A stretch of DNA of 64,000 nt from an uncultured Gemmatimonadales bacterium (GTDB lineage Bacteria; Gemmatimonadota; Gemmatimonadetes; Longimicrobiales; RSA9): positions 96,001-160,000 of the forward strand of contig CAWCRS010000002.1 of the NCBI GenBank assembly GCA_963798085.1, given 5' to 3'. The notes under the pieces are model-generated. The model was not told where the DNA came from, did no database searches, and worked only from the letters and a program-made list of their open reading frames with translations. Position numbers and translations under genes: made by a program. Shown here piece after piece: positions 1,380-55,564 of the stretch. Each line of letters starts with the position of its first letter. Positions within the stretch are counted from its first letter, which is position 1.

Positions 1380-2301
1380 TCACGCGCCCGGGTTCATTTC
1401 GCCGTATCCGACAATGACGCAGCCGCCGGCAATGCGGATCTCCGAAATGGCGCCGCCCTTCAGGTCTGCTTCCATTTCAATGAGGCTCGGCCTGCCCATC
1501 TCGAAGCCCTGCTCGACCCGGCAGGTGAGTCCGGTCGCGGGCACTGCGGACTGCCGCCACAGATAGCCCGCGAGCGCGGCGACCGCCGCGCCCGCTGCCG
1601 GATCCTCGACAATGCCCATGGCCGGCGCAAACATGCGCGCCCGGATCATGGAACCCTCGAGTTCGACATCGCGTGTGATCACGTACACATGAGGGGACCA
1701 GGATGCCAGACAGCACTTCCCGCCAGACGGCCAGGTTGAGACTCACCTTTCCCAGAACGCCGCGGTCACGAACGGGGATGAACAGGAACGGCACGCCGCA
1801 GGAAGCCCGCAATGCGCTCCACTCACCATCGCCGATGGCCTCGACCGGAAGTGACAGCAATTGTGCCAGTACATTGAGGTCCGGCGGCTCCGCTCCGAAC
1901 TGCGGCAGGCTGGGAACGCGCAGTTGCGCTGACAACCGACCCGCTGCTTCCCGAATCACCACCGGCACCGGTCCCATGCCTTCCTCAAACACAATGTTTG
2001 CCTGACCGCCGGCCAGCGGCACGACGCCCACGTCCGCAAGCACACAGGCAGTGCCGACCGTCGGGTGTCCAGCGAATGGCAGTTCCGCCTGCGGCGTGAA
2101 AATGCGCAATTTCGCAGTGTGCTCCGGCGAGGCGGGCGCAAGAACGAAGACGGTCTCCGAGAAATTCAGCTCCCTGGCAATCTTCTGCATGACCGCAGGC
2201 GGCACCGTGTCCGCCCACGGAAAGACGGCAAGCTGATTGCCGCCGTATTGCGTGCTGGTGAACACGTCAGCCAGCACGAATCAATGCCGCCCGTCGCTCA
2301 T
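1380..2301 (-). CDS. PhzF-family isomerase (apparent TGA at 2281-2283 and +1 frameshift near 1700, probably sequence errors)
   Basis: [34 protein letters not shown], then RMFAP..EDPAAG and [10 protein letters not shown] in the next frame; ATG at 2301 with GAGG upstream. Confidence 0.85.
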
Positions 2302-2476
2302 GCGCGCCTCCGTATCGGTCAATGTGCCCGCGATACCAAGCCGCGCAATTCGTGGAAGTGCCCGTTCTGCGTTGCCGAGTGGTGACTGACACCGTGCTCG
2401 CGGAGCCGGCGCACGTCGGCTGCGTTCCTGGCCGGATCGGCTGCGCTCGCGGTGAACCGTTATCGGTTGCAGCCCA

Positions 2477-3799
2477 CTACATGTTCGCCGGATTGCTCGG
2501 GCAGGCGTTCTTGTGGCCCATCAGCTGGGCAGGCGCGAACATCTGCTTGCAATACGGGCACGCCTTCGTGCCACCCGTGGCTGCGGACCTGACCACCTTG
2601 TCCTTGTTCTCGTAGCGCGTGAGGGCAGAGCGCCAGTTGTGTCTGGCTTCCGTGCACAGACCGCGCAGCCGGGTCTTCAGCTGATCGGGAAAGGTCGGAC
2701 CGTACGAGACCTTCTGGTCGTCCTCACTCGGCAGAATGCGCGTCGAGATCACGTCGAAATCGTAGAAGGCGAGCGAGCCGCCGCCCGTGGGCGGCTGGTC
2801 CCAGAAGTGCTTGCGGCGGAGTTTCAGCTCCCCCAGGATCGCGTTCACGTTGATCCTGTCGACAGCGGCCTCCGGAAACGGGTTCTTGCCGCCGGTCTCG
2901 CGCTGCCATTTTTCGGTGTTGAAGGCGTGGACGTTGTCGACGCGGACCACGTACACGCAGATCTCCGTCTCCACATGGTCGACCACGCCGTTCTTGCGCA
3001 CAGCCCTGACTTTGAGCCAGTGCGCGGCCGCAGCCTGGTCATCCTGCGGCTTCCAGTCCTTCAGCGGCTTCGCACCCAGAGGGAACAACGAAGCGTCGGA
3101 GAGCAGCGGGTAGGGCAGGATCTCGGCCAGTTCCTTGGCGACGCTGACCACCGTGTGCAGGCAGTTGTCCCGGTTGATGCCTTTGCGCAGGAAGAGAGAA
3201 TTGGCGTAGACCTCGAGTCCCAGCGGATTCCAGGGTTGATCAAGGCCGAATTTCGCGTAGACGGGATCCTTGCTCGAGCGCGCCCGCGCGTGGAAGCCGC
3301 CCTGCTTGACGAGCGTCTCGTAGTTGCGGCTATCGGCGCGGAAGCCGAGCTTGACCAGCTGTTTGGCGCCTTCCGTGCCGTATTCCATCGTTTTCAGAAG
3401 AATGGCGGCGCCATCGGCTGCACGGTCCACGCGTACGCCGGCGCCGCCCGTGCTGATGGGTCCGCTCAGCGGCACTCGCTTGAAACCCAGTACGAGCAGG
3501 GTGGTCAGCACCGTGCGTTTCTTCTCCGCCGGCATGCTGTCCAACCCCGCCACGGGGCGGAACCGTGAACCGTCGGCCTGCAGCACGGCGAAGAAGGCGT
3601 CGCACAGCCTCCCCTTGTCGCCGTCCGTCAGCTCGGGCGCCTGCCGGGCTTCCTCCCAGAGGTAGTTGAACCAGAAGCCGAAACTCCGCTTGACGGGATC
3701 GCCGAACGGCGAGACGACGTTCGCGATCGACGGCCACCGGCCGGCCCGCTGGTTGGGCGCGGTCCTGTTGACGGAGGGAGGCGTGTACATGCGGCGCAT
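2477..3799 (-). CDS. Putative cholera/pertussis-toxin-type (R-S-E) ADP-ribosyltransferase with C-terminal C2HC zinc finger
   Basis: GFRADSR..KQGGFHAR, VVSVA, VYVVR..FNT, NPFPEAAV..I..ILG in the order seen in cholera toxin A1; C-terminal CPYC-x11-H-x3-C. Start at 3799 or 3790. Confidence 0.6.
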   Translation of the reverse strand: MRRMYTPPSVNRTAPNQRAGRWPSIANVVSPFGDPVKRSFGFWFNYLWEEARQAPELTDGDKGRLCDAFFAVLQADGSRFRPVAGLDSMPAEKKRTVLTTLLVLGFKRVPLSGPISTGGAGVRVDRAADGAAILLKTMEYGTEGAKQLVKLGFRADSRNYETLVKQGGFHARARSSKDPVYAKFGLDQPWNPLGLEVYANSLFLRKGINRDNCLHTVVSVAKELAEILPYPLLSDASLFPLGAKPLKDWKPQDDQAAAAHWLKVRAVRKNGVVDHVETEICVYVVRVDNVHAFNTEKWQRETGGKNPFPEAAVDRINVNAILGELKLRRKHFWDQPPTGGGSLAFYDFDVISTRILPSEDDQKVSYGPTFPDQLKTRLRGLCTEARHNWRSALTRYENKDKVVRSAATGGTKACPYCKQMFAPAQLMGHKNACPSNPANM

Positions 3800-3994
3800 C
3801 CGGAAGTGGGTGAAGCAGGCATCATTCGGGCGGGGATGCTAGCGCAGGCCGCGGTGCGCGGCAATGCCGCTGAGCGCTGCGGGCGGCGCCGTCTACAGCC
3901 GTGTTCGCGGACTGCAGCGACGGCCGGCGTCGCGGGCGCAGGCGAGCATGGGCGTGGACGGACACCGAGACAGTCGTTGCGGCGACGAGGGAAA

Positions 3995-4068
3995 TGCGCC
4001 CGGCGCGATTCGAACGCGCGACCTTCGGCTCCGGAGGCCGACGCTCTATCCAACTGAGCTACGGGCGC
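3995..4068 (-). tRNA. tRNA-Arg(CCG), CCA not encoded
   Basis: GCGCCCGTAGCTCAGTTGGATAGAGCGTCGGCCT-CCG-GAGCCGAAGGTCGCGCGTTCGAATCGCGCCGGGCGCA folds as a cloverleaf. Confidence 0.97.
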
Positions 4069-4080
4069 TGCAAAAAAAAC

Positions 4081-4469
4081 GGGAAGCGAATAAGCCGGGT
4101 TCTGTCTCCCTCGCGGGAGGCGGATCATTTCTCTGGGACCGCGGTTGCCCGACGGCCTCGTGCAGCCTACCCGGGACTGCTCGATCATTGCTGACCGACC
4201 GGCGCGGGCCGCGCCTCGTCCCCTATTTGGCCTTGCTCCGGGTGGGGCTTGCCGTGCCACTCCCGTTACCGGGAGCGCGGTGGTCTCTTACACCACCATT
4301 TCACCCTTGCCTGTGCCCTCGCGGGCCATCGGCGGTGTGCTTTCTGTTGCGCTGTCCGTCGCCTCGCGACGCCCGGCTGTTAGCCGGCACCCTGCCCTGT
4401 GGAGCCCGGACTTTCCTCCGCTCCCGATCCCTCCGTGGACCGTGGCGCGGCGATCCGCACTCGCTTCCC
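4081..4469 (-). ncRNA. rnpB: RNase P RNA (type A)
   Basis: GAGGAAAGTCCGGGCTC, ACAGAAA, GGGTGAAA, GAGCAAGGCCAAATAG and 3' ACAGAACCCGGCTTAT motifs; P1 helix GGGAAGCGA / TCGCTTCCC. Confidence 0.97.
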
Positions 4470-4643
4470 GAACATCGTCTGCACCTGCCCGCGCGCGCTC
4501 TCCGGAATTGCAGACGGGTCAGGCTGTGACACATCGCCCCGCGGCGCTCCGTCCGGATGCTCCGGGCGGGACCGGCGGGGCAATGTTGTTGCGAAACGAA
4601 TGCTACCGGCCGGGTGACGATCCGTCAACCCGAAGCAGTGTCG

Positions 4644-13887: not shown

Positions 13888-14911
13888 CTACCCTAACCGC
13901 CTGATAATGGCAGCGGCGAAGTCGGCGGTGCCACTGCGGCCGCCCAGATCCGGCGTCAGCGTGTCGTGCACCTCGAGGGTCTGCTGTGTGGCGCGACGCA
14001 CGCGCTCCGCCGCTTCGCCCTGCCCCACGTGTTCCAGCATCATGCAGGCGGCCAGGATCATGGCCGTGGGGTTGGCGATGCCCCTGCCGGCGAGGTCGGG
14101 CGCGGAGCCGTGCACCGGCTCGAACATGGCCGCTTCCCGTCCGATGTTGCCGCCCGGCGCCATCCCCAGGCCACCCACGAGGCCGGCCATCTCGATCGCT
14201 CAGGATGTCACCGAACATGTTCTCCATCACCAGCACATCGAACTGCCAGGGATCGAGCACGAGCTGCATGGCCGTGGCATCAATGATCCGGTCGTCGAAG
14301 GCGACGCGGTCTGCGTACTCCTGCGCCACACGCCGGCCCTCGTCGAGGAACAGGCCCTGCGTGTACTTCAGGATATTGGCCTTGTGCGCGAGGGTCACTT
14401 TGCGCCGGCCGTGCGTCACTGCGTACTCGAAGGCATAACGCACAATGCGCTCCGCGCCGAAGCGCGTGATGATCATGACGGACTCGGCCGCGGCACGCGG
14501 ATCATCGCCCATGCCGATGTAGTGCTCGACGCCCACGTACAGGCCTTCGGTGTTCTCGCGAATGAGCACCAGGTCGATGTCATCGTAGCGGCCGCCCGGC
14601 ATGAGTGTGCGCGCCGGACGCACGTTGGCGTAGAGGTCGAATTCCTTGCGCAGTGTCACGTTGATGCTGCGGAAGCCGACGCCCACGGGTGTAGTGAGCG
14701 GCCCCTTCAGCGCGACGCGCGTACGGCGGATCGAGTCCAGAGTCGCGTCCGGCAGCGGTGTGTGCAGCGCATCGACTGCCGCCATGCCCGCCAGCTGGTA
14801 GTCCCATTGCAGCCGAGCGCCCGCTGCCTCGAGGACGCGCAGCGTTGCAGCCGTGATGTCCGGTCCAATGCCGTCGCCCGGAATCAGGGTCACGGCGGCG
14901 CCAGTGGTCAT
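13888..14911 (-). CDS. Isocitrate/isopropylmalate dehydrogenase family protein (+1 frameshift near 14190)
   Basis: [33 protein letters not shown], then [13 protein letters not shown] in the next frame. Confidence 0.9.
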
Positions 14912-14992: not shown

Positions 14993-15590
14993 TCACTTCC
15001 CCGCGATGACGCCCGCCAGCGCATTGGCGGCCGTGGCGGCGGCGGCGGGGGAGCCTTCGGCCGCGGGCTTGCCGGCGACGACGCCGAACCAGAGAACGCG
15101 GCCGCCATCGGTCTCGATGAGGGCAAGGCTCATCTCCGACGTGGCCCGCGGCCGTGTCGCCGGGCGCGTACCAGGCGGCGACGGGCAATAGTGCGAATCG
15201 CGCACCCAGCAGCACACCCAGGCTGTGGAGATCGCCGAACAGCGGGTCGCCGATATTCTTCACCTGCGCGCGACGGAACGCGGAAACGGCCAGCGCGTGC
15301 AGGTCGATCTCGAGTCCGGGCGAGCGCGCGAGCGCCCGTTCCATCGCGGGTGGAAACACCCACTTCACACCGGGCAGCCGCTCACCCAGCGCGAACGCGA
15401 TCTCGCGGTCCAGCCCCGGCACCGGCTCCTTCGCCAGCGCACCCGGCCCCGGCTGCGCCGGCAGCATCATCACGGTCGCCCCCGTCATGTCCGGCGGCCG
15501 CGTCGCGTTCCCCGCCGCCGGCGGCGCCCGGTGGGCACAGCCCGCCAGCGACAACGCGTAGAGCGCCATGCTAATGATCTGTTTGGTCAA
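14993..15590 (-). CDS. Hypothetical lipoprotein (+1 frameshift near 15135)
   Basis: LAGC lipobox; reading continues in the 14993..15217 frame (EMSLALIETDGGRVLWFGVV). Confidence 0.6.
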
Positions 15591-23842: not shown

Positions 23843-25528
23843 GCCTTCGCTTCCTCCCTGATGCGGATCCTGAGGCCGAAGGTCTTTTCGAAGAGACCCG
23901 CCTTGCGCTGCACGGCCCAGCGTTCGAGCAGCAGATCACCGGTGCCCAGCAGCTCCAGCTGCACGGCGCCATCCTGCACACGCGCGCGCACCTCGTGCAC
24001 GGTCTGCAGATGTTCGCGGTCCAGCGCATCGGCCATGCGTACGATGGCCGTCGAGATGCGTCACGCGGCTGCGCTCCTTTTCCGAGAGCGCCATAAAGGC
24101 TTCGTGGTGTGCGGCCGGCTCACCCTTGCGGTGATAGCGCGCCACATTGGCGGCCATCAGGATCTCGCGCTGCGTGAGACCCGGCAGTTCCGATTGCGAG
24201 ATGATGTAAAGTGAATGTTTGTGGTGCCGGCGATAATTGATGAAGAGCCCCACGTCGTGCAGCGTGGCGCCGGCAATGAGTACGCGACGGTCCGCCTGTG
24301 TGAGTTTGTGCACCTCCTGCAGCTGCTCGAACATGGAGAGCGCGAGGCGAGCCACGTGCCGGCCGTGCGCGGCGTCGAAGCGGAAACGGCGGCCCAGCGC
24401 GATCGCACCCAGCAGCACGATGTGCTCCTGCCGCTCGACGTGCGGCTCGTGACCCGAATAATCATCGACGATGTCCAGCACGATGCCATCCTTCAGACCC
24501 ACATTGGGCACGTGGATGACATCGGCGCCCGCCTGCATGCACAACTGCTCATAGACGGTGGCCGCAGGCAGGATCACATCGGCGCGGTCCTCGCGCAGGT
24601 CCAGCTCGTGCACACGCTGGCGGAACGACATGCGCGCCAGCTTCTCGGTGACCGCACGCAGCTGAGCCAGGGGCAGCCGGCACACGCCATTGGCGTCCGG
24701 CTGTGCGCCGGCCAGCTTCGCCAGCGCTTCGATGTTGCCACCCGTCGCAATGAAGCCGGCGCGGCGCGCCCGACCAACGTGCGGAATGCGCAGGGTCGCC
24801 GCGTATTCCTCGAGGCGGCGTCTGAAGCGGCCGGGCTCATCGCCTGCCACCTGCAATTCCTCGAGCAGTCGAACGGAGCCCATACCGTGCGACACACTCC
24901 AGTGTACGTCGCGGTCATCGACCAGCGAGACCTCGACGCTGCCACCGCCCAGGTCCACAAGGATCCAGCGATCCTCGCCCAGGGGAATGCGACTGCGCAC
25001 CGCCTGGTGCACGAGCCGCACTTCTTCCGCCCCGGTTATGATTTCGATCTCGATGCCGGTCGCCGCGCGCACGCGTTCGATGAACGCCTCGCCATTGTCG
25101 CTGTCGCGCACCGCGCTGGTGGCGACCGCGCGCCAGCGATCGATGCCCAGTGCGCTGATGCGCTCGCGATAGACGGCGAGCGCATCGACGGCGGCAGCCA
25201 TGGCCGACTCGGCGAGACTGCCGGTGAGGAACACATCGTGCCCGAGGCGAACCGAGGTGCGGACCTGCTCGAGCACGGTGTAGTGCGAGCGCGCCACGAA
25301 TTCCGCAGCCAGAAAGCGCAGGGCATTGGAGCCGACATCAATGCCGGCGACGCGCGTCGGGAAAATGCCCGTCAGCGGACCATCGCGGGTCCGGCCGAGT
25401 TCTCCGCCCTGAGGCGATTGGGTTTCCAGCGCCTCTGCCCGAGGCGAAAGCAGGCGATCCAGCATGGGCGCGCAATGTATTCGCTCCGCCAGCCGATTGC
25501 GAAACGAAGCGCGTAACGCGTCGGTCAC
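23839..25528 (-). CDS. ppx: Exopolyphosphatase Ppx/GppA with HD domain (+1 frameshift near 24055)
   Basis: IDVGSNA, ATSAVRD, DLGGGSVE, RADVI, LHDVG..HHKHS, then MADALDREH in the next frame. Confidence 0.9.
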
Positions 25529-27134: not shown

Positions 27135-27551
27135 CTCTTCCTTGTGCCGCTGACCTCGAGCACGCGCTGCCACTGCTCGGTCGTGACCGGCCACACGGCG
27201 ACGCGCGGCATGCGCACGAACGACAGGGTGGCGAGCACCGGATCGGCCTTGAGCTCGGCGAGGGGGATGGGGCGGGCGAGCGGACGCACGGGCGCTACGT
27301 CGACCACTACCAGCTCCGGCTTCTTCGGATCCGGCCGGGCTTCTCCGGTGATCTTCGCGATGCCGACCAGCGCCTTGTCCGGCGCCGTGTGGTAGATCAG
27401 CACCTCATCGCCCCGCACGGCCTTGCGCATGCTGGACTGGGCGCGTGCGTTCTTCACACCATCCCAGACCGCCTGCTTTTCCCTGACCAGTTCGGGCCAG
27501 CCGTAGGCCGTCGGATCGGCCAGAAACACCCAGTTCAGATGCGCCCGCCAT
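27131..27551 (-). CDS. EVE domain protein (probable +1 frameshift near 27538)
   Basis: NWVFLADP..YGW, WDGVKN, GDEVLIYHT, LAELKAD; the ATG at 27551 with GAGGAG RBS is one base out of frame. Confidence 0.8.
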
Positions 27552-28811
27552 CAGCTCCTCGCTCCGTTGCGTGTGACTTCGTGCTCGCGGCAGCAGGCTT
27601 CGATCTCTTCCCGGGACAGGGTGTGGTTGCTGCGCTTGGCCAGCTCGAACACGTGCTGGCACAGCGCCTCGTCCGAGGCATCCCAGCCGTGCACGGAAAG
27701 CCAGTACTTCACGTTGGACATGCCGCTCACGTGGCTGACCTCGATCTCCTGGCTGCGGCCGAACAGCGCCGGCGGAACACCCGAGTAGACATTGTCAGCC
27801 AGCCAGGCATCGCCTTTCGCCCTCGCCTTGATGATGGCCGCGGCGTGCACGCCCGTCGCCGTGCGGAAGGCATCGCCGCCCTGCACGGGATAGTGCGGCG
27901 CGATGGTGACGCCGGTCGCCTGTGACACTTTCCTGCAGTACTCGGGCAGGCGGGAAAGGTCGGCATCGTGCATGCCCATGAGCTTCATGTTCACGAGGAT
28001 CAGGTCCATCTCGGTGTTGCCCACGCGCTCGCCGATGCCCAGTGCCGTGCCGTGCACGCGGCTGACGCCCGCAGCCATGGCCGCGAACGTGTTGGCCAGA
28101 CCGAACCCGCGATCGCGATGGCCGTGCCAGTCGACACCCACCGCTTCGCCGCTGGGTTGCACGATCTCATCCATGACGAAGCGTACGAGCCGCGTGGTTC
28201 CCTCGGGTGTGGCGTGGCCGACCGTGTCCGCGAGGCAGATGCGCCGCGCGCCGCAGGCGATGGCGGTGCCGTAGAGCTGCTTGAGCACTTCCGGTCGCGC
28301 CCGCGTCGTGTCTTCCGTCACATACATCACCGTGAGCCCCTCGCCGGTCGCGAAGCGCACCGCGTCTTCCGTAGCGCGCAGCATCCGGTCCAGCGTCCAG
28401 TCCTCGGCGTACTGCCGGATGGGTGAGGAGCCGATGAACGTGCACGCCTCGATCGCGACACCAGTCTCCTGCGAGATGCAGCGCAATCGGCTCGATGTCG
28501 GCGCGTACCGTGCGTGCCGCGCAATTCGCCGCAATACGCAGCCCGCCGCGAGCGATCTCCTGCGCCAGCGCGCGCACGTCGCTGACCGCACGCGGTCCGG
28601 CGCCGGGCAGGCCTATGTCCGCGGTGTGGATGCCGAGCGCATCCATGAGGTGCAGGATTTCGATCTTGTCGGCGATGGGCGGATCCAGCACGGAGGGCGC
28701 CTGCAGTCCATCACGCAGCGTCTCATCGTCCAGCTCCACGACGGGCAGACCGCGGAAATCGAAAGCACCGGGCGCCTGATTCCAGTCGTAGATCAGATCC
28801 TGCTCGCGCAT
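27551..28811 (-). CDS. LeuA-family (DRE-TIM) acetyl-CoA condensing synthase without regulatory domain (+1 frameshift near 28480)
   Basis: DETLRDGLQ, EDTTRA, LADTVG, WHGHRDRG, GIGERVGN, TGVHAAAI. Confidence 0.85.
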
Positions 28812-33569: not shown

Positions 33570-36008
33570 TGGCGGCGCGGTCGCAGAACCCCGGCATCCC
33601 GGAAATCCTGCCGGTGATGCCGCTCCGCAGTACGGTGGTCTTTCCCACGGGCGTGGTGGGTGTGCAGATCAGCATGTCCGGCACGCTGGAAATGCTGGGC
33701 GCACATCCGGAGCCGGGGCTGATGGTCGCGGCCGTAGTGCCGCCCGGCGGACCCGACGATCCCATCGATTTCACGGATCTGCAGAAGATCGCAGTGGCGG
33801 TGCGCGTGTCCGACCGGCTGAATCTGCCCGGCGGCATCGTGCAGGCCACGCTGCAGGGCTTGCAGCGTGTTCGGCTGCGCGCGGTCGAGGAGAAGGGCGG
33901 CTACCTGGTGGCGCGCGCGGCAACGCCGCGCGAGCGGCCGGCCCCCGAAGAACAGGCTGCCGAACTGATCACGCGCATCCTCAACGCGCTGGAAGCATTG
34001 TCCGGGCAGGTCGATCGCATCTCGCGCGAAATCCCCCGTATCCTGCGCATGAACCTGGGCGACCCGGGTCGCTTTGCGGACCTGGTCGCGACGCTCTCCA
34101 ACTTCTCGGTGGCAAGCCGCGACCGCGTGCTGCAGCTGCTTTCGGTCGAGGCCCGGCTGCGCTTCGCGTGCGACGAGCTGGAGGCGCAGCTGCTGCGTGT
34201 GCGCAAGATCTCGGATGACGCGGCGGCGGCTGCGGCGGCACCGCCGGTCGCGCAGGCAGCGGATCCCACACGGCGTGCGACCGATCTGCGCCAGCAGATC
34301 AAGCTGCTGCAGGCGGAGCTGGGCGAGGTCGACCCGCTGGAAGCGGAAACAGTGCGTTTGCTGCGTCGTGTGGAAGGCTCGGGCCTGCCCTCGCGCGCAG
34401 CGTCGAGGGCGCGCTCGGAGATCGAGCAGCTGCGCACCGGTTCGAGCGATGTAGGTGAGATCCGCGCGTACCTCGACTGGCTGTTGTCGCTGCCCTGGCA
34501 GCGCAGTGCCACGGAAGGTCCTTCGCGCATCGACCTCGCAGCCGTGCAGCAGGAGATGGATCGCCAGCTGCTGGGCCTGACCGAACCGAAGGAGCGCCTG
34601 CTCGATCAGCTCGCGGTGGCGCGACTCCGCCGTACGCTGGGAAGTGTCATTCCCTGCATTGTCGGGCCGCCGGACACGGGCAAGGCCACGCTGGTCGAAG
34701 CCATGGCGGCAGGCCTGGGCCGTCCGCTGGCGAGGCTCGACCTGGGCGGTCGTACGGTCGGCGACCTGCTGGGCATCCGGCGCACGCGCGGCGATGCGCA
34801 GCCGGGGCGCATTGCGGCACTGCTGCGCGACGCCCAGGTCAACGACCCGGTGGTCCTGCTCGATGAAGTGGATGAGCTGACGTCGAGCAGCAAAGGCGAG
34901 GAGACAGGCGAGGCGCTGGAGGAGATCCTGATGGATCCCTCCCACTTCATGGACCGCTATCTGGAAGTGCCCTTCGACCTGGGTAACGTCCTGTTTGTCG
35001 CGGTGGCGCACGATTTCCAGAAAGTGCCGCGTGCACTGCGCGAGCGCATGGTCGAGATCCGCATACCCGGCTACACACCCGAGGAGAAGGTGGAGATCGC
35101 GCGCACGCGGCTGCTGCCCCGGCTCATAGCCGAGCACGGCCTGCTCGCGGGCCACGTCGACTTCAATGCGGAAGGGCTCTACGCGCTGGCCTACGGCTAC
35201 GCGCGTGATGCCGGCGTGGGCGCGCTGCAGCGCTCGGTGGAGACGCTGCTGCGCACGCGCGCGAGGGCGAGGGCGAGGGGCGATGCCTCGCGCTGGACCT
35301 TCGATGTGCCGCGCATTCGAGCAGGTGCTGGGTGTGCCGCGCTACGTGCCCACGCCCGCGGAAAGCGCCCCGGAGATCGGCGTGGTCACGGGACTCGCGT
35401 GGACCGCGTCAGGCGGCGAGCTGATGTTCATCGAAGCGCTGCGCATGCCGGGCAGTGGCCGCCTCATCATCACGGGCCTCCTGGGCGACGCGATGCGCGA
35501 GTCCGTCAATGCTGCCTACTCGTATGTGCGCAGCCGCGGCCCCGAACTGGGCATCACCGAGGAGGATTTCCGCGAATCCGATGTGCACGTCCATTTCCCG
35601 GTGGGCGCCATTCCCAAGGATGGCCCCTCGGCCGGCGTGGCCGTGACGCTCGCGATCGCGTCGACACTGTCGAATCGCCCCGTGCGGCACGACATGGCGG
35701 TGTCCGGCGAAGTCACTCTGCGCGGGCGCATCCTCGAGGTGGGTGGTGTGCGTGAGAAGGTGCTGGCGGCGCATCGCGCGGACATCCCGCATATCATCCT
35801 GCCCGCAGGCAATGAGCGCGATCTGCGTGATGTGCCGGAGAAGGTGCGCGCCGGCATCGCCTTCCATTTCGTGGAGCGCATGGACGACGTGATCCGTCTG
35901 GCGCTGCACGGCGCGCCCGGCATGTCCCGGCCGGTGGTCCGGCTGGGCACCGAGGAACAGCGCGAGCCCCGCGTCGCCCAGCCCGGCAAGCGCAAGCCAC
36001 GCAGCTGA
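33569..36008 (+). CDS. lon: Lon-family protease with divergent AAA+ module (+1 frameshift near 35316)
   Basis: Lon N-domain, GPPDTGK, LLDEVDE, GLAWT..GG, PKDGPSAG, GGVREK. Confidence 0.85.
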
Positions 36009-36040: not shown

Positions 36041-36476
36041 TCAGGCGGGTTCCAGCTCGCCTTCGAAGGCGGTAATGCGCGCCCGCACATCTCTGCGGAA
36101 CGGACTTGGAGCTGCCCGCGGCGTAGTCGAACATCACCTGCGTCGTGCGACCACTGGCCACCACTTCACGGCCCGGCCCGCAGATCTCGAATTCCATGTC
36201 GAACGACTTCTGTCCGATGCGGCTCACGCGCAGCGCCACCTCGAGGCGTGATGGGAATTCGATGCGATTCCGGTAGCGTACGGTGACCTCGCCCATGACG
36301 TAATCGATGTCCTCGAGGCCCTCCCGGCCAACGACTTCCCGCCAGTACGCCGCGCGCGCCTCCTCGAGGTAGATCAGAGGCATGGCGTGGTGCGCGTGAC
36401 CCATCGGGTCGAGATCGCGGAAGCGCACATCCACAGGAAACCGGAAACGGTAGGCCGGGTGCTGGCTGTCATTCAT
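36041..36476 (-). CDS. Acyl-CoA thioesterase, 4HBT family (+1 frameshift near 36092)
   Basis: VRFRDLDPMGHAHH..YLEEAR, RIGQKSF; tail DVRARITAFEG in the next frame. Confidence 0.85.
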
Positions 36477-42912: not shown

Positions 42913-44816
42913 GATGGGGCGGCGACGCTTCCGCGTACAGCGCCTCGATCGCATCCGCCCAGTGTTGCTCGACGACGCGACGACGCACCTTGAGCGTGGG
43001 CGTGATCTCGCCCTGCTCCAGCGTGAGCTCGCGATCGATGGCGAGCACCTTCTTGGGCCGTTCGAAGTGCGCGAACGTTTCCGTGCGGCGCGCCACTTCC
43101 TCCTCGAGGCGCGCGATCACGCGCGCGTCCGCCACCAGGGCCTGTGCGGAGGTATCGGTCACGCCTTTCTGTCTGGCCCACGCGCGCAACGTCGTGAAGT
43201 TGGGCACGACCAGCACGATCGCGTACGGCCGCCGATCGCCCAGCAGCACGGCTTCCGCAATGAAGCGACTCTGCTTCACGGCGTTCTCGAATGGGCTGCG
43301 GCGCAATGTACTTCCCGCCCGCTGTCTTGATCAGCTCCTTCTTGCGATCCGTGATGCGCAGGAAACCGTCCGCATCGATTTCGCCGATGTCGCCGGTGTG
43401 CAGCCAGCGCTCGGCATCGATCACGGTACGCGTCGCGTCGTCGTCCTTGTAGTAGCCCTTCATGATCTGCGGTCCGCGGATCAGGATCTCGCCGTCGTCG
43501 GCCACGCGCTCTTCCGTTCCCGGTATGGGCCGGCCTACGGTGCCGATGCGCATGTGTTGCGGCGTGTTCACGTTGGTGACAGGCGACGCTTCGGTCAGAC
43601 CGTAGCCTTCGAGAATCAGCAGGCCGGCGCCGTAGAAGAACTCCGTGATCTGCGGCGCCAGCGGTGCGCTGCCCGAGATGAAGAAGCGGATGCGGCCGCC
43701 CATTCCCTCGCGAATCCTGTGAAACACGAGCCGGTCCGCGAGCGCGTACTGCAATCGCAGGCCCAGTGGCGGCCGATGCCCGGCAAGCAGCTGCTTCGCC
43801 CATTGCAGAGCGACGCGTCGCGCCCAGAAGACAATGCGTCGCTTGAATCCTGTTTCCGAGAGGACGCGCGCGTACACCTTCTCGTACACGCGCGGCACCG
43901 CCACCGCGACGGTGGGCTTCACCTCCTGGAACGCCTGCGTGACTTCGTCGAAGTTCGCGACATACGCGATGGTGCAGCCGTAGGAGAACATCACGTAGTC
44001 GACGGTGCGCTGGAACACGTGGGAAAGCGGCAGGAAGCTGAGCGCGACGTCGGCCAGGCCGACGGGCAGATCGGACAGTGACGCGATCACGTTGGCGTGC
44101 AGGTTGGCGTGCGTCAGCATCACGGCCTTGGGCGTGCCGGTGGTTCCCAATGTGTACACCAGCGTGGCCAGGTCCTGCGGGCCGATCTCCCGCGCACGCT
44201 GCCTGAACTCGTTCTCGGTGCCACCGGCCTGCCTGCCCCTGTCCAGCAGCGCCGTGTACGACATAACACCCGGTTCAGTGAGCGGCACATCATCGAAGGC
44301 GACAATGCGCCGCGGCCGACCGCACTGCGCGCGTACCTCCAGCATCTTCTGCAGTTGTGCTTCACTGGAGACGAACGCCGTGTCGACCTCGGCGTGCTCC
44401 ATCATGTAGGCGATCTGGGGCGGCGGCAGCGTCGGATAGACGGGCACGGTGAGCGCGCCGTGGCAAATGATCGCCCAGTCGGTCAGCGCCCACTCGGGCC
44501 GGTTCTCGGACAGGAGGGCCACGCGATCGCCGCGGCGCACGCCCTCAGCGGCCAGTGCCTGCGCAATGAGCTGCACCTGTTCGAGCACGTGACGGTGCGA
44601 GATGGGCCGCCATGCGCTGGCCGAGCGGTGCAGCATGGCATCCGGCTTGTCGAACTCGTCGATGGCCTGGAAGAACAGCTCGACCAGTGTGCCATCGGGA
44701 ATGTCGGCGGGCGTGTTCGCATAGCCCACCCGGAATTCCGATTCCGCGTGGGGCGGGGCGGCCGGCGGCGCGTCCGTATTCTGCATCACCGCCCTGGCCT
44801 GCCCAGGCTCATTCAC
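42905..44816 (-). CDS. Long-chain fatty acid-CoA ligase (+1 frameshift near 43290)
   Basis: YT(L)GTTGTPK, EGYGLTE, HTGDIG, ITDRKKE..GGKYIAPQ, then GEITPTLKVRR in the next frame. Confidence 0.92.
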
Positions 44817-46436: not shown

Positions 46437-48381
46437 TCAGGGCCGTAGCTCCACCACTGTCACCTTGCCAGCCTGCACGCGAATGCGCCGCCATACGTGC
46501 TGCCCGGCGATCTCTACGCCGATCAGGTAGGTGCCGGCGGGCACATCATTGACGGCGAAATTCTCGCCGTAGACCGGATCCGGGTGGGCGCGCTCGCCGT
46601 ACGTCTCCGCGTACGAGTAGGGTGTCTCGGCCGGGTAGGGCAGCACCAGGCCGAAAACATGTGCGCCGCGTACCGGCTGACCGGTCGCATCCAGCACGCG
46701 ACCGACGACGGTACCGGTTCCCGGCAGCGGCTCCAGCCATAACTCGGGATTCACAGTGTGCGGCGGGTAGCGCTCATTGGCATTCACAATGTCCGCCGAG
46801 TCCGGCGAGGCAGACACGTGGATCTCGAGGTGCAGGTGATCATTCGTGGCGCGACCCGTGTTGCCCACTCGCGAAATGACATCGCCGGCATTGACGTGCT
46901 GGCCGCTGCTCACGTCGAGCGAGGCATTGTGGTAGTACACGGAGAAGACGTACTTCCCATCCAGCTGGGCGTCATGACGGATGGCGACCGTGTGGGCACC
47001 CGCTTCCGCATCGCCTGCGAACACCACGGTTCCAGCGGCCACGGCATGCACCGGCGTACCCGCCGGATTATTGAACTCGACCCCCTGATGCTGCTGGAAG
47101 GCCCCACCCATGGTCGAGCCGTAACGGTAGGTGGCATCAATGTACGGATTGGCGGCGCTGTCCGCGATGGGCCGGGGAAAGCGCATGTGCTGCGCGTCCT
47201 CAATGGTGCCGCCCGGCACCACACTCGAGTACACGATCTCCGGACCTTCGCCCGCCAGCACGCGCGACAAGCCGCTGGCCGCGCCGCCAACGGGCCAGGG
47301 CGGCGGGCCCAGCCACGTCATGGACCACATGTCGGCGGCCGGCTTGTAGTCGTCGCCCGCGGCCACGAAGTAGATGCGGAAGTCACCCAGGCCGTTGCCG
47401 GCCGCGAGACCGAACGAAAGCACAATGGAGGGTTCGGCGATGCCGGGCGTGGGCACAATCGCCCGCGGCTTGCCCGGCAGTCCCGGCCAGCCCGGCAGAT
47501 TGATGGTCCCGGGCACGAACTTGTTCTGTTTGCTGCTGCGTGCGGAGTCGACCAGGATCTGATCCTCGGTCGCCACCCATATCATGGAGTCGAGTGTGGC
47601 AGCGACCGCGCGAATGCGCCTGGCGGGGATGCCGTCTGCGGGCGTGAGATTGCGCCACGTGCGCCCCGCGTCCTTCGATGTCGAGAGTCCCTCGAGGTGC
47701 CCCACCCAGATCGCGCCATCCGGGCCGATATCGACCGATAGCAGGTACTCCGTGGGCAGTGCGGCCACGCGCTCCGTGCAGCCATCGTTCGCGCGATCCG
47801 CGCCGCCGGCCACGACGTGCAACGCGGTCACGCAGCGCCACGTCTGGCCGCCATTGCTGCGTGATGCGCAGTCCGTCGGCGGTGGCAATGACGACGGTGT
47901 CGCCGGTGCTGCGCATGCCGTTGTGCGCGACGTACTGCCACTGCGGGCCGAGCCGCGTCATGGTCCAGTTCTGCCACGTGGCGCCGCCATCCGTCGAGCG
48001 ACCCCAGCCGTTGCCCACCGTGCCGTACCAGACCGAGCCATCATTGGGGAACGCGAAGCTGTTGATGTAGCCCCATGAGATTGCCGTGGAGTCACCGGCG
48101 TGCGGCGCGATGTGCTCCCAGTGGCTCGTGCCGTTGCGCAGCACGTAAATGCCGCGGCCGTAGGTGCCCGCCCACAGCGCGCCTTTGCTGTCCACGCCCA
48201 GCGCGAGCACGTGCACGCCGAAGCCGGTGCTGTCCGGCAGAGGCGGCGGCAGCCTGCGCCGCTGCGGCTGCGGTGGTCCGGCACCCTGTCGTTCCTGTTC
48301 CGGTGCGCCACCGCTGGCGCATGCCGCTGCCAGCAAGGTCGTGAGCAGAACCAGCCCCGCAACACCCGACCGCGTGCTCAT
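46437..48381 (-). CDS. Lipoprotein with beta-propeller, M23 peptidase and C-terminal beta-sandwich (+1 frameshift near 47860)
   Basis: LAAC lipobox, STDGGATW and SKDAGRTW boxes, HQGVE..GTPVHA, GNTGRATNDHLHLEI. Confidence 0.8.
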
Positions 48382-48764: not shown

Positions 48765-48767
48765 CGT

Positions 48768-49509
48768 TCAGGCACGCTCCAGCGAGAGGGTGGGCACATT
48801 CGTGCCCGGCGGCTGCGTCAGAGCATACACCACGGCGCCAGCCACTGCATCGGGATCCAGCATGGCGTCACGCGGTGGCAGGTTCGTGTGCACCGTGCGA
48901 TCGAATGCCATCCCACATGGCCGTGTCGGTCGCGGCGGGCTCGACCAGGGTGCAGCGGACACCCGTGTTGTGCAGCTCGAGCGCGAGCACGGCGTGCAAT
49001 CCGCGCACGCCGAATTTCAATGCCGAGTACGCGCCGTTCATGGGGAATGCCTGGCGGCCGGCCACGGAGCCGATGGTGACAATGTGGCCGCGGCCGCGTT
49101 CCAGCATGGCGGGCAGGAACGCACGCATCATGAGGAACGGCCCGCGCAGGTTCACCGCCAGGTGCTCCTCGAATTGTGCGGCGCTGGTCTGCGCGATCGC
49201 TGACAGTGCAAACACGCCCGCCGCATTGATCAGGAAATCGGGCGCGCTCTCACCCAGCACGGCGCGGAACCTCGCCGGCATCTGCTGTGTGATTCTCGCG
49301 TCGGAAACATCGCCGGCGAGCGCCACACCCGCCACGCGCTCCGCCGCCTCACCCAGGCTGGCCTTGCCCCTCGCCACCAGCGCCACGCGCACGCGGGCTG
49401 CTGCCAGCCGGCGTGCAATGGCGAAGCCAATGCCGCGCGATGCGCCGGTCACCAGCGCGCTGCGCCCTTCGAGTGTCGCCGCAACCGCCGCCTCAGCCAA
49501 CGATGCCAT
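48768..49509 (-). CDS. SDR oxidoreductase, candidate sepiapterin-reductase-like (+1 frameshift near 48905)
   Basis: [16 protein letters not shown](L)[12 protein letters not shown], then [10 protein letters not shown] in the next frame. Confidence 0.8.
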
Positions 49510-50095: not shown

Positions 50096-50580
50096 GATTC
50101 CTCCTCCGCCCCCAGGCCCGTGTATTCGACTGCGTTGCGCGGCGTTTCGTGCAGCACCAGACGCGTCAGCCGCACCTGCGGCGGCAGCTGCGGCATGATG
50201 CGGTTCCAGATGGCCAAGACCAGGTTTTCCGTCGTCGGATTCACATCGCGCAGCCACGGAACATCGAGATTGAGGTTCCGGTGATCGAGATCATGGATCA
50301 CACCCTCCTCGACGATGTCGCGCAGCACCTTCAGGTCAATGACGTAGCCCGTTTCAGGCGCGACCGGTCCTTCGACAGTCACCTCCAGCTCGTAGTTGTG
50401 ACCATGCCAGTTGGGATTGGCGCAGAGGCCGAACGTCTCGCGGTTCGTCTGCTCATCCCAGTCGGCCCGACCCAGCCGGTGCGCGGCGCTGAAGTGGAGT
50501 CGTCGCGTGACACGCACCCGCGGCAATGCGCGCGCCTTCGAGCCTGCGCCGTCGCGCTGCTTCGACTCTGCCTGTTTCAT
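50092..50580 (-). CDS. 6-pyruvoyl-tetrahydropterin synthase (PTPS-II / animal-like)
   Basis: [44 protein letters not shown]. Confidence 0.85.
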
Positions 50581-50708: not shown

Positions 50709-50873
50709 GGCGACGTACCGAAGGTCATTTGTTGGAGCCCAGTCGAAATCGACTGGTGACCTCCCCATTCCTTCCGGCTTCCCCCTCGCGAGGGCATGAC
50801 GTCCAGAACGGGAGCTGGCCCCAATGAAGCAATGCTGTAGGCCCAAAACGGTTCCCTCGGTACGTCTGTCGCC
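50709..50873 (-). ncRNA. Structured non-coding RNA, 6S-like (identity unconfirmed)
   Basis: Closing stem GACGTACCGAGGG / CCTTCGGTACGTC, inner helices and hairpins; has its own promoter and terminator. Confidence 0.6.
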
Positions 50874-50879
50874 GCTGAA

Positions 50880-50908
50880 AAGGTAGTCTGACCCTTCAGG
50901 GGTGTCAA
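50880..50908 (-). promoter_or_regulatory. Sigma70 promoter of the structured RNA
   Basis: TTGACA-17 nt-TACCTT. Confidence 0.7.
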
Positions 50909-50930
50909 TTCGATGGACGCACCACTTCGG

Positions 50931-51599: not shown

Positions 51600-52294
51600 C
51601 GCCGTGGCCCCAGCTCGAAACCGGCCTGCAGCAGGAAGCGGAACACGGAGCCGGATTGCGCGCCCGCGTCGCGCAGGACGGGCGTGCGGAAGCGATGCGC
51701 CTGACCGGTCGCACGCAACACCACGCGCGTTCCCGCCAGCGGCACGTGCACGCCCGTGTTGCACTCGAGCAGGGGCGCCAGCTCGCTGCCGTTCTCGAAC
51801 AGACCGCCAGTCGCGTAGTAATGCAGCGCACCGAAACCGCAGCCGGCGTCGGTCTTCCAGAACAGTGGGTAGCGGACACCAATGGTGAGGTGTGCGGCGG
51901 AGAGATTCTGCATGCGGCGCACGCCATCGCCATCGTGCGCGTCGAGGTGTGTAGCGGTCCAGCCGAAGGAGAGATCGAGCGTGCTGCGGTGGCGCAGCGG
52001 CAGCCCCAGTGCGACCTCGAAGACCGGCCCCACGGTGGGGACGGCGCGCACACCGCCGGCGAACAGCGTACCGAGTCCACTGCGCAACAGCGGGTTGGCC
52101 ACCTCGTCTTCAGCCAGTGCGCTGGACTTCACCGCGCCGGCCCGCACCTCGACGGTCGGGTGCTGGGCACGCGCCGATCCCGAAACACTTGCAAGCAGAA
52201 CTGCGAACACAAAGGCCGGGCCGAGCCCCACTGCGCGTGTTGAGCGCGGGTGCGCCCAATGTCGTGCCGCCTGACCCACCGCTACTACGTGCAT
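51596..52294 (-). CDS. Hypothetical exported beta-barrel-like protein (start uncertain)
   Basis: Signal peptide ending SARA|Q, amphipathic strands; overlaps the matrixin start. Confidence 0.6.
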   Translation of the reverse strand: MHVVAVGQAARHWAHPRSTRAVGLGPAFVFAVLLASVSGSARAQHPTVEVRAGAVKSSALAEDEVANPLLRSGLGTLFAGGVRAVPTVGPVFEVALGLPLRHRSTLDLSFGWTATHLDAHDGDGVRRMQNLSAAHLTIGVRYPLFWKTDAGCGFGALHYYATGGLFENGSELAPLLECNTGVHVPLAGTRVVLRATGQAHRFRTPVLRDAGAQSGSVFRFLLQAGFELGPRR

Positions 52295-52544
52295 CCAGGC
52301 ATCAACCCGGCAGCGACCGCTCGGCGCGCGGGTCCCTCCCGCGGCTGCGGACCGCGGGTATCGAGCCGGGCCCTTCCATCGTGTCAGGCTGAGGATGGCG
52401 CAGTGCCTCGCCGGCCGTCAAGCAGCGGCCGCCACGGGTCCGGCCAGGGTCCCGCCAGCGGTCGCCACTCCGACATTGTGCGCCAGGCGGTCGCAGCGTA
52501 TGCTAGGGTCCGGTATCCTGTTGGACCCCGTATCCCGGCTCCCC

Positions 52545-53067
52545 GTGCTCTGGTTCGTTTCCGTCTATTTCCTCACGGTGCTGGTGCTGCCGCTGGCCGT
52601 TGGGGGCGCGGTAACCTACCGCTCGCTCCCGTGCGGCCGAGAATGCCCGCGCTGTCGACACAGCACACTGCTGCTGTCATCGCCACATCTTCCGCCTGCT
52701 CTCCCGCCTGCCTTTCATCGAGCTGCAGCGTCGCTGGTGCCTGGATTGCGGCTGGCTGGGCGCCGTGCGCGTGCCTCGGCCCTCATTGCGCCTGGTGGTG
52801 GAAGGACGTTCCGATCCCACGACGGCTGCGCGCATCATCGACGTGCGCCATCTGCTGGTCGATGGTGTGTGGTGGCGCGTGCGGCTGGAAACGTGGCGCG
52901 CAGGCCGTCAGTGGTATGGGCGACTTCTCTTCGTCGAGCCGTCGGGCCGACTCTGGCCGGACGCGCGGCCGCTGAAGGGTGCCACGGATCGCGAAGTCCT
53001 GCGTCAGGCCCGTCGCCTGCCCGGCGGTCTTCTCGCCTCGCGACTGCGCGAACTGGTTTCACGCTGA
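52545..53067 (+). CDS. Membrane-anchored zinc-ribbon protein (+1 frameshift near 52690)
   Basis: TM helix, ECPRC, then RRWCLDCGW in the next frame, continuing into ORF 52765..53067. Confidence 0.6.
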
Positions 53068-53519
53068 GCCGCCGCACACGACGCCGCTTCCGCCGCGTTC
53101 TCCAGCAGTACGCGTCGCGACTTGTAGCGCAGTTTGCGCTGCGCATCCGCCAGTGACAGCCACGCGAAGCGACTGGACTCCTCGGAGAGGGTGACTTCGG
53201 TGCGCTTCGCCTCGGCGAGGTAGTACGTCACGCGCTTGCGGATGAAGGTGCGCTCGCTGTCATCCCCCGCAACGAAGCGATAGTCCTCCGCGTGCTCGAA
53301 GCCAGCCACGAGCCGCACGTCTCTGCGTGCGAGTCCCGTCTCCTCTTCCAGCTCGCGCAGTGCTGCCTGCTGCAGGGTTTCGCCGGCATTGAGTCCGCCC
53401 TTGGGGAATTCCCAGAGTGGACGGCGCGTCAGCCGCGAACGCAGCAGCAGGAATCGGCAGCCGTCTGCGGTGCGCTGGAACACGATGACGCCCGCGGAAA
53501 CATCGCGGCGCTCACGCAT
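53004..53519 (-). CDS. NUDIX hydrolase (Ap4A hydrolase-like)
   Basis: SAGVIVF, WEFPKGGLNAGETLQQAALRELEEETGL. Confidence 0.9.
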   Translation of the reverse strand: MRERRDVSAGVIVFQRTADGCRFLLLRSRLTRRPLWEFPKGGLNAGETLQQAALRELEEETGLARRDVRLVAGFEHAEDYRFVAGDDSERTFIRKRVTYYLAEAKRTEVTLSEESSRFAWLSLADAQRKLRYKSRRVLLENAAEAASCAAAQRETSSRSREARRPPGRRRA

Positions 53520-53718
53520 CATCACGACTCTTCCGACATCGGCAGTGTCTGTTGCAGGGTGGCGAACGCTAGGTCCCGGTGCAACGCACAGCAAGTCCGC
53601 CGGGGCACGCAGTTGACATTCGCCACGGTGCAGGGGAGCTTAGCGGCCGGGGCGATCCTCTACCAACGGAGCACGACAGGGTCCGCATGGCTTGGATGGC
53701 GATACGGCGCAGTGCGTC

Positions 53719-54132
53719 ATGAACCTGACCATGGCAGTGATCTGTGACGAAGCGCGCGAGCGGCCCGATGGCCGCTTCGACATTGTCGGTGTGTACAGTG
53801 AGCTGTCGGCGCCCGGTTTCCCCGCCATACAGGAGCGCATGACAGTGGTGTTCGTCATTGAGTGGGCAGTCGAGGAAGCGGGCACGCAGGTGCTGCGCGC
53901 CGACCTCACCGATGCGGACGGCCAGCGTATTCTCACGATCGAAGGTGAGACGGAAGTCTCCCGCCGCGCCGGCGACCGCCCACCCGCAATGACCCGCATG
54001 ATCATGCCTCTCGAGCAGGTCATCTTCCCGCGTGCCGGCCGTTACCGCTTCGACCTGGTGGCGGGCGGCGATGTGCATCCGGCCTGTTCGCTGTTCGTGG
54101 GCCAGCCGGCCGAATCGGGCCGGGCCCACTGA
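53719..54132 (+). CDS. Hypothetical beta-sandwich protein (DUF6941-like)
   Basis: AVICDEA..DGRFDIVGVY..FP..GRYRF. Confidence 0.6.
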   Translation: MNLTMAVICDEARERPDGRFDIVGVYSELSAPGFPAIQERMTVVFVIEWAVEEAGTQVLRADLTDADGQRILTIEGETEVSRRAGDRPPAMTRMIMPLEQVIFPRAGRYRFDLVAGGDVHPACSLFVGQPAESGRAH

Positions 54133-54195
54133 CGCGTCGCGGCAGGGCCGCGCGCGTCCGCGTCTGACCAGCACCGCATAACCCCTGGAGTACGC

Positions 54196-55564
54196 ATGAC
54201 CGAGAGTGAGAAGCGACCACGCGTTCCGCTGCACACGAAAATCCTGCTGGGCCTGCTGATCGGCGCCGGCGCCGGTGTGGCCAGCAATCTGCTGTGGCAC
54301 AATTCGCCCCGCCTCAACTGGCTGGTGGACAATGTGGCCACGCCTGCAGGTCAGATCTTTCTGCGCATGCTGTTCATGGTGGTGGTCCCGCTCGTCTTCA
54401 CCACGCTCTCCCTCGGCGTCGCCAACCTGGGCGATATCCGGCGTCTCGGGCGCGTGGGCGGCAAGACGCTGGCCTTCTTCATCATAACAACCGGGTTAGC
54501 CGCCACCATCGGCCTGACCATGTTCAACATCGTCCGGCCCGGCTCGCGGCTGGATCCCGCCGTGCGCGCCGGACTGCTGCAGCAGTATTCGTCGCAGGCC
54601 GAAGTGACCGTCAATGCCGCCGCCAACACCGGGTTCGGCATCAACACGTTCGTCAGCATTGTGCCCAGGAACATTGTGGACGCGGCGGCCAAGGGCGACA
54701 TGCTGGGCCTGATCTTCTTCGCCCTGGTCTTCGGCGTGGCACTCACGCGCGTGCCGAAATCCATGGCGGATCCGGTACTGCGCGTGCTCGAGGGGATCGC
54801 CCAGGCGGTGGTCGAGATCATCGGCTTCGCCATGAAGCTGGCGCCCCTGGGCGTGGCCGGCCTCATCTTCGCCGTCACCGCGCGCTTCGGCTTCGATGTG
54901 CTGCGCTCGCTCGGCGTCTTCGTCGTCATGGTGCTCATCGGCCTCGCCATCCAGCAGTTCGGCGTGATCGCCATCCTGGCAAAGGTGCTGGGCGGCTTCG
55001 GCCCGCGCGAGTTCTACAAACGAATGCGTTACGTCATGATCACGGCGTTCTCCACGTCCAGCTCGAACGCCACGCTGCCCACGTCACTGCGCACTGCGGA
55101 GGAGGAGTTCGGCGTACCGCGCGAGATTGCCGGCTTCGTGATCCCGCTGGGCGCCACCATGAACATGAACGGCACGGCGCTGTTCGAAGGCATGGTCGTG
55201 CTCTTCCTGGCGCAGGTCTTCGGCGTGCACCTCACGCTGGGCTCGCAGATCGTCGTCGTGGCCATGGCCATCATCACCGCGATCGGCGCCGCCGGCGTGC
55301 CCGCCGGCTCGATCCCACTGCTGGTCATGGTGCTCCAGAATGGTCGGTGTGCCCGGCGAAGGCATTGCCCTGGTGCTGGGCGTGGACCGCATCCTCGACA
55401 TGTCGCGCACCGTGCCCAATGTCACAGGCGACGTGTTGACGTCCATCGTCATCGCCCGCTCCGAGGGTTACACGCTCAAGCCCGCGTCCGCACCCGACTT
55501 CTCGAGCGCAGCCGCGGAGGAGGCCGCCGCCCACGAGCACGAATTGCACGCGGGCGGGGATTGA
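54196..55564 (+). CDS. Dicarboxylate/amino acid:cation symporter (+1 frameshift near 55339)
   Basis: FSTSSSNATLP, GATMNMNGT, GAAGVP, then GVDRILDMSRTVPNVTGD in the next frame. Confidence 0.92.

Follow-up and report, generated by a model that had tools for sequence, protein, structure and literature searches.

The window, a stretch of 64,000 nucleotides at positions 96001-160000 of contig C2 of G000, the genome of a Longimicrobiales-like, uncultured soil bacterium (6.23 Mb in 12 contigs, 67% GC, 90% complete), contains 13 genes with broken reading frames and a set of CAATG words that appear to be miscalled CGATG. The original prediction held that the genes are intact in the organism and that all the breaks are +1 errors at CATC/GATG, left by a modification of this 4-mer. 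Here we report that the broken genes are sequencing mistakes, not real mutations, and that the errors follow a motif centred on GATG. The analysis relies on the nearest comparison genomes, both at about 72-74% DNA identity to G000: G001 belongs to the same genus and comprises 250 contigs, G010 to the same family with 40 contigs.

All 13 breaks of the window are indeed net +1, ten by codon-aware alignment, two by DNA alignment (blastn) and one by a split Pfam match. Each of the ten codon-aligned breaks is a single step about 9 nt or less from the position first proposed, with its junction in or next to CATC/GATG or CATT/AATG (Table 1). The break in the PhzF-family gene, originally placed at 1699, rests on the Pfam split, as the loci compared include no relative of it: PF02567 is divided over the minus-strand open reading frames (ORFs) 1477-2277 and 1380-1688 (profile positions 2-185 and 197-278), which are offset from one another by +1 in frame. 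Three substitutions of CATC to CATT had also been proposed. In the fadD-like gene (44149) and the SDR gene (49019) the relatives carry serine codons where the assembly reads CA-TTG; in PhzF the stop reads CAT-TGA, three codons ahead of the start of the Pfam match, and 2283 would be the miscalled base.

Table 1. Frame breaks and miscalled sites of the window, in window positions. The names Idh-like, ppx, LeuA-like, lon, fadD-like and M23-like are carried over unchecked from the original prediction.
Feature	Span	Strand	Step or base (compared with)	Context
+1 break, PhzF-family gene	1690..1706	-		beside GATG, GGATG context; exact base not fixed
CAATG, putative miscall of CGATG	2282..2286	+	2283	false stop at PhzF N-terminus
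+1 break, Idh-like gene	14188..14197	-	14195 (G010)	AGATG
+1 break	15131..15140	-	15137 (G010)	AGATG
+1 break, ppx	24044..24060	-	24051 (G010)	adjoins CATCT
+1 break, N-terminus of EVE-domain gene (PF01878)	27530..27545	-	one-base blastn gap (G010)	CATCT
+1 break, LeuA-like gene	28472..28482	-	28480 (G010)	adjoins CATCT
CATTC, CATC with an extra base, lon	35314..35318	+	35316 (G001, G010)	GAATG on opposite strand
+1 break near C-terminus, thioesterase (4HBT) gene	36084..36095	-	one-base blastn gap (G001); Pfam	AGATG
CATTC insertion, fadD-like gene	43288..43294	-	43291 (G001, G010)	
CAATG miscall, fadD-like gene	44148..44152	+	44149 (relatives have Ser)	Ser>Leu, YTSGTTG reads YTLGTTG
+1 break, M23-like gene	47855..47866	-	47859 (G001, G010)	adjoins CATCA
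CATTC insertion, SDR gene (Pfam adh_short)	48902..48910	-	48905/48909 (G001, G010)	
CAATG miscall, SDR gene	49018..49022	+	49019 (relatives have Ser)	YSASK reads YSALK
CAATG in assembly, CGATG in run X1	50337..50341	+	50338 A>G	absent from original prediction
CAATG in assembly, CGATG in run X1	50830..50834	+	50831 A>G	absent from original prediction
+1 break	52675..52692	+	52677 (G001)	beside CATC
AGAATG insertion near end of SDF symporter gene (PF00375)	55336..55344	+	55342 (G001)	

Part of the window could be compared with a public run, X1, of which contigs were used and which may come from the source sample or from a close strain. Of the words sampled from window 43001-53000, X1 contained 24%, and its contigs were compared with the assembly over window 35251-55250, where areas without X1 cover carry no information. 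Five letter differences were listed; two of the five change CAATG to CGATG (P ~1e-4), and the other three lie off the motif. Since X1 reads G at 50338 and 50831, the CAATG words there are assembly errors. Across the eight listed X1 pieces, assembly and run concur at 16 CGATG sites, while of the 13 CAATG sites present two were corrected and a third (44149) probably was: the piece 44135-44417 contains one unlisted difference, necessarily near an end, which is consistent with this correction without showing it. The miscalled share obtained from X1, 2-3 of 18-19 CGATG sites (11-16%), is in line with the 10-14% estimated from homology. Two further runs, X2 and X3, contained next to none of the window's words and showed nothing. 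Together with the difference in frameshift rate between G000 (189 in 939 kb) and G001 (2 in 341 kb), the two X1 readings bear out the view that the genes are intact and the errors motif-driven.

These rates come from a genome-wide comparison, in which 0.61 Mb of the ~5 Mb of G001 and 1.42 Mb of the ~6 Mb of G010 were sampled, and 456 and 947 ORFs were called, respectively. A blastn match in G000 was obtained for 890 of the relatives' ORFs, which were then aligned with a purpose-written frameshift-aware codon aligner; 879 codon alignments passed, covering 939 kb with partial overlap between the G001- and G010-based alignments. From 439 raw frameshift steps we dropped 146 that lay 20 codons or less from another, 69 with weak or unusable flanks and 21 that failed to keep the query in its true frame on both sides, which left 203, or 189 after merging duplicates (143 of +1 and 46 of -1). 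G010 itself gave 29 frameshifts over 732 kb, the filter being slightly looser there. A list of premature stops consisted mostly of antisense shadow ORFs and was left unused.

By far the top word near the +1 events was GAATG/CATTC, present at 29 of 143 against 2.2-2.5 expected. By context, these were 13 AGAATG (0.5 expected), 14 CGAATG (0.6), one GGAATG (0.6) and one TGAATG (0.3). AGATG was found at 11/143 +1 events (2.3 expected), with the extra base two or three places upstream, and AAATG at 3/46 -1 events (0.3 expected). Of random coding positions, 26% have CATC, CATT or their complements inside a 19-nt window; over this background these words were enriched at both isolated +1 events (30/48, P 1e-7) and clustered ones (38/95, P 2e-3). 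The claim that all breaks are +1 and lie at CATC, accurate for the 13 breaks of the window, did not extend to the genome, where 46 of the 189 events are -1 and 83 of the 143 +1 events have no GATG or AATG within 7 nt. As many as 134/189 frameshifts lie within 1.5 kb of another break, often in motif-free patches, which are probably low-depth stretches of the assembly. Patches rich in motif-free frameshifts of both signs were seen at C2:45-49 kb, C3:273 kb and 419-421 kb, C7:1.275, 1.333 and 1.842 Mb, and C9:55-59 kb. CGATC was also in excess (19/143 +1 events, 7.5 expected), which could reflect an extra G just before the A of CATC, with a mark on the CATC strand, or an effect of GATC.

Substitutions pointed to the same motif. 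Because differences in codon usage masked any signal in raw asymmetry counts taken over every type of substitution, we used class-normalised tests: an unbiased scan of non-synonymous transitions, normalised by amino-acid class, over 55,708 sites where G>A alters the amino acid. Its top and single hotspot was C[G>A]ATG, with 37/272 sites against 9.3 expected, and after removal of GATG no context stood above control level. The other contexts gave 3/21 for A[G]ATG (1.0 expected), 6/175 for G[G]ATG (5.3) and 1/88 for T[G]ATG (2.0), and CGATC and CGACG, the sister contexts of CGATG, had little or no excess. At conserved CGATG sites, Asp was replaced by Asn in 17-19%. In the A>G scan, T[A>G]TC reached 39 against 9.4; as a related context is seen in the control direction, we took this excess for an evolutionary effect. 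A Dam-like GATC motif was rejected (C[G>A]ATC 5/216, 6.7 expected), and so, apart from the -1 base, was an extended or bipartite one: among 321 CGATG>CAATG differences compared with 860 kept sites, no flanking base from -14 to +14 exceeded 56%. CCWGG showed no substitution excess in the scan, a null that carries no information, since training of basecallers on CCWGG has been reported (PMC11610603).

The isoleucine codon test proposed with the original prediction agreed with this. In G000 the share of ATT was 34.4% in C-ATY-G against 10.6% in G-ATY-G, and the excess after C was present in all 35 bins and on 11 contigs. The corresponding shares were 17.1 and 7.3% in G001, and 7.4 and 2.8% in G010.

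Taken together, the GAATG and AGATG insertions, the C[G>A]ATG hotspot and the lack of excess at GGATG and TGATG give a footprint of MGATG (M = A/C), in which the G that immediately precedes the A is changed to A, or an extra A appears. This footprint does not extend to every CATC, the 4-mer first proposed, as GGATG and TGATG have no excess. An enzyme might read GATG, the -1 preference then coming from the basecaller, or it might read a 5-mer, two cases that look alike in an assembly. In the consensus, ~10-14% of CGATG sites are substituted, and the frame is shifted at ~2% of AGATG and 0.3% of CGATG sites.

Errors of this form resemble the methylation-induced consensus errors described for nanopore R10.4.1 data (PMC11610573; PMC11610603), which likewise consist of purine ambiguity 5' of A, with G>A changes in a species-specific motif. 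PMC11610573 describes purine/pyrimidine (R/Y) ambiguity with a minimal error motif RA/TY across 32 species, a signal that is noisier in native than in amplified DNA at the error sites, and error motifs that are species-specific, with almost no errors in some species; its motif list includes CARATG, CRATGTCG and RAT. Both the C[G>A]ATG hotspot and the GAATG insertions fit the RA/TY form. The errors as published there are substitutions in isolates, at tens to a few thousand sites, whereas in G000 about one tenth of CGATG sites are affected, +1 and -1 indels occur too, and the errors were read from an assembly against relatives. Since G-to-A (G2A) errors are reported to arise on the strand bearing the G (PMC11610603), the affected strand would be that of GATG. 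The chemistry originally proposed (a modified C, a 7-deazaguanine or a backbone modification) finds no support here; the error, G>A or an added A, sits next to the A of GATG on its 5' side and has the RA/TY pattern of PMC11610573. Most likely the mark is N6-methyladenine (6mA) at the A after the miscalled G, the natural candidate on this reading; PMC11610573 itself assigns no base.

We consider it probable that the genes are intact in the cell and that the organism carries 6mA in GATG, possibly only in MGATG, on the GATG strand. What the data show directly is the motif, which way it changes, how often, and the read disagreement at two sites; a nanopore platform, methylation as the cause and 6mA as the mark are the most likely reading of them. 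In this model, native nanopore reads of the GATG strand would lead the basecaller to call A for the G that precedes the methylated A, or to emit an extra purine, and at modest depth the consensus would retain the wrong call at part of the CGATG and AGATG sites. G010 shows the signature weakly, both in substitutions (6/104 vs 1.8 expected, P 0.01) and in CATTC/CATCT at +1 events (5/21 vs 3.4%, P 6e-4), while G001 shows none in non-synonymous sites (1/95 vs 1.6).

The original prediction knew of no common system with this target; 6mA at the non-palindromic 4-mer GATG/CATC has been published for MhoVII of Mycoplasma hominis, by its authors' own statement the first experimental proof of GATG/CATC methylation, in 2026 (PMC12898733). 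MhoVII is described as a Type IIS-like cassette in which M1 (beta class, GmATG) is fused to M2 (D12 class, CmATC), together with a nuclease. No such cassette was found in G000, where a lone D12 enzyme resembles the N-terminal half of FokI and the clear footprint lies on the GATG strand only. The error class is known, and so is the target since 2026, in a different gene arrangement.

The gene content of G000 is in keeping with 6mA. G000 has four adenine-type methyltransferases (MTases), and its single C5-MTase (PF00145) is Dcm-like: it is fused to a helix-turn-helix domain and lies beside Vsr and an EcoRII-C nuclease on C11 (8,569 bases, 63.9% GC). PF00145 had a match in 1/15 family relatives and was not found in G010. 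A Type I restriction-modification (R-M) locus on C3:931-939 kb is split into many short ORFs, through either decay or sequencing error.

The best candidate for the writer of the mark is P0001, an orphan D12-class MTase (PF02086) of 354 amino acids at G000:C5:177724-178785, with an S-adenosylmethionine motif near the N-terminus and DPPY later. It is flanked by an acyltransferase and a DUF423 gene, with an amidohydrolase nearby and no nuclease adjacent; in relatives, DUF423 recurs in 10/19 loci and the acyltransferase in 5/19, many of these loci being incomplete. P0001 was found in 63/73 family genomes and a gamma-class enzyme, described below, in 62/73, counts that include G000 and the unpublished G015, G016, G019 and G076; without those four they are 59/69 and 58/69. 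In two other families of the class P0001 occurs in 11/11 and 10/40 genomes, and a strong match was obtained in 26/201 genomes drawn from the phylum (one, G230, unpublished). Its residues 1-331 align (33%) with the N-terminal half of a protein that bears the name modification methylase FokI, and P0001 also aligns with phage proteins annotated as ulcer-associated (HpyI-like) methylases. Among the PADLOC MTase_II profiles it matches positions 1-327 of a 646-position one and the whole of a 343-position one. The N-terminal half of M.FokI recognises GGATG (PMC3985630, citing Friedrich et al. 2000). P0001 shares profile matches and DPPY with the D12 MTases of the FokI N-terminal and NlaIII/HpyI types, and differs from them as a single-domain protein with no nuclease beside it, housekeeping neighbours and conservation in most family genomes; the footprint, moreover, is MGATG, not GGATG or CATG. 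Dam and CcrM are lineage-conserved orphan adenine MTases, and P0001 is like them solitary and vertically kept, but its candidate target is asymmetric. If the mark is 6mA, we give P0001 roughly an even chance of being the writer.

Its main rival is a strain-specific Type III Mod, which, on the same supposition of 6mA, we regard as a possible writer with a minority chance. The locus on C8 has mod (633 amino acids, C8:331400-333298) and res (993 amino acids) side by side and both open, and Mod, with motif DPPY, is the single PF01555 match of G000. Type III R-M systems place 6mA on one strand of an asymmetric 4-6 bp site. With the C8 Mod as query, no close match was found among 15 family relatives, G010 included, which itself has the weak signature; the names of homologues of the Mod target-recognition region gave no known specificity.

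Somewhat more doubtful as the writer, again supposing 6mA, is the family-conserved gamma-class IIG-like enzyme (1129 amino acids, NPPW, C1:262737-266123), of which, as of P0001, G010 carries an orthologue. In C1:262737-269680 it is followed by a 216-amino-acid ORF and a 933-amino-acid ORF with GMGKT, which we take to be helicase-like, and it is unusually conserved for a defence-type gene. We kept it as a candidate, and considered a two-strand pair, because the unproven CATC enzymes of REBASE are described as solitary gamma-group MTases (PMC12898733). Some other writer is very unlikely. Searches of PDB sequences gave no informative relative for P0001 or for the gamma-class enzyme.

We tentatively suggest that a family-wide, Dam/CcrM-like orphan MTase may mark (M)GATG on one strand, and that it may pair with the similarly conserved, unlinked gamma-class enzyme, which would mark CATC on the opposite strand, in a two-gene, nuclease-free housekeeping system. 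GATG is neither enriched nor avoided near dnaA or between genes (observed/expected, O/E, 0.92-1.04), which so far gives no hint of a Dam-like role.

Several observations weigh against 6mA at GATG or against P0001 as its writer. At 111/189 frameshifts there is no GATG or AATG nearby. The read support consists of two sites, each in one contig at depth ~4, from a run that could represent the source sample itself or a close strain; no listed X1 contig corrected a frameshift site in window 35251-55250, and the single X1 indel, a +2 behind 47903 (contig depth 2.7), conflicts with homology, both relatives being in frame without it. GGATG, the target of the FokI N-terminal half itself, has no substitution excess. 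P0001 is about equally similar to NlaIII/HpyI-type enzymes, which are CATG-specific; CATG as the motif showed no sign at +1 events (8/143, 8.8 expected), though the RA rule cannot reveal CATG by substitution. Six few-contig relatives that carry P0001 lack a G000-like signal, with CATTG/CATCG at 0.09-0.17 vs 0.53, and in 160 kb aligned from seven few-contig relatives (these with G046, which has no P0001 match) none of five frameshifts lies at CATTC/CATCT; these are small samples of 40-60 kb each, from unknown platforms. Finally, 5-methylcytosine (5mC) in place of the last C of CATC would affect the miscalled base pair too, and is likewise compatible with TY.

The leading alternative is that the errors stem from a methylated cytosine, CAT(mC), as N4-methylcytosine (4mC) or 5mC on the opposite strand, which we consider unlikely. 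The miscalled pair includes the last C of CATC, TY lies within the minimal motif of PMC11610573, lower accuracy is reported at the G and C of 5mC-type GATC (PMC11610603), and at 90% completeness of G000 a gene may be missing. However, the single PF00145 match is the Dcm-like enzyme with Vsr and EcoRII-C that was not found in G010, the single PF01555 match is the Type III Mod with its DPPY, and G2A errors are tied to the G-bearing strand (PMC11610603). It is likewise unlikely, and a shade more so, that the basecaller or polisher is weak at MGATG irrespective of modification and that low depth exposed this. The strong dependence on the -1 base, the many motif-free errors, the weak tendency in G010 and a general +1 bias in G000 and G010 would suit such a weakness; the variation of motifs between species, some with almost none, and the difference between native and amplified signal (PMC11610573) argue against it, as do CGATC and CGACG with their little or no substitution excess.

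An unusual mark at GATG/CATC, such as phosphorothioate, 7-deazaguanine or another backbone or base modification, is very improbable. The miscalled base is a G, and a short asymmetric motif would suit phosphorothioate or 7-deazaguanine-type systems. The gene search suggested with the original prediction (methyltransferase, dnd/ssp, dpd and BREX loci) returned MTases, but in the 90% complete G000 it gave no DndD over cut-off and no PF01507 (DndC/SspD) member (dndB/dndE and sspB/C/E were not searched), no DpdA and no second tRNA-guanine transglycosylase beside a single full-length one (other dpd genes were not searched), and no PglX of BREX type 1. Real changes, through motif-directed mutation or genome decay in the lineage, are the least credible: synonymous sites have a somewhat stronger AT shift in G000 than in G010 and the relatives also favour ATT after C (odds ratio 2.6-2.8 vs 4.4 in G000), but ~200 frameshifts per Mb in core genes, damaged catalytic motifs, the Asp>Asn share at conserved CGATG and the G read by X1 at two sites speak against them.

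Overall, we regard the finding as an artefact of a known kind with a methylome lead. At ~200 false frameshifts per Mb and, by extrapolation of the 10-14% rate, 3,000-4,500 false G>A calls in G000, no biological meaning should be read into apparent pseudogenes and catalytic-site changes such as YTLGTTG and YSALK, and the errors pass on into protein databases. The comparison also provides a concrete methylation target for the lineage and two MTases conserved in ~85% of family genomes, the motif being recoverable when an assembly is compared with relatives that share 72% identity. A literature search found no methylome report for the lineage, although supplementary motif tables or REBASE may list the motif for Gemmatimonadota. 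The novelty may lie in a lineage-wide orphan enzyme with GATG as its putative target; if the family-wide (M)GATG system is true, the error spectra of public nanopore assemblies could by themselves suffice to reveal the methylomes of uncultured lineages. P0001 is of interest whatever its target, kept as it is across the family and in every genome of another family of the class.

Some minor observations were made alongside. In the window, a compensated -1/+1 pair at 50696/50733 was seen against G010 and not against G001, and a step at 63112 failed the reading-frame filter. A second DnaA-family frame (570 amino acids, two PF00308 matches) lies at G000:C7:1021291-1022775, the main dnaA being on C3. 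G000 also strongly avoids CTAG (O/E 0.17), GAGCTC (0.33) and AAGCTT (0.44).

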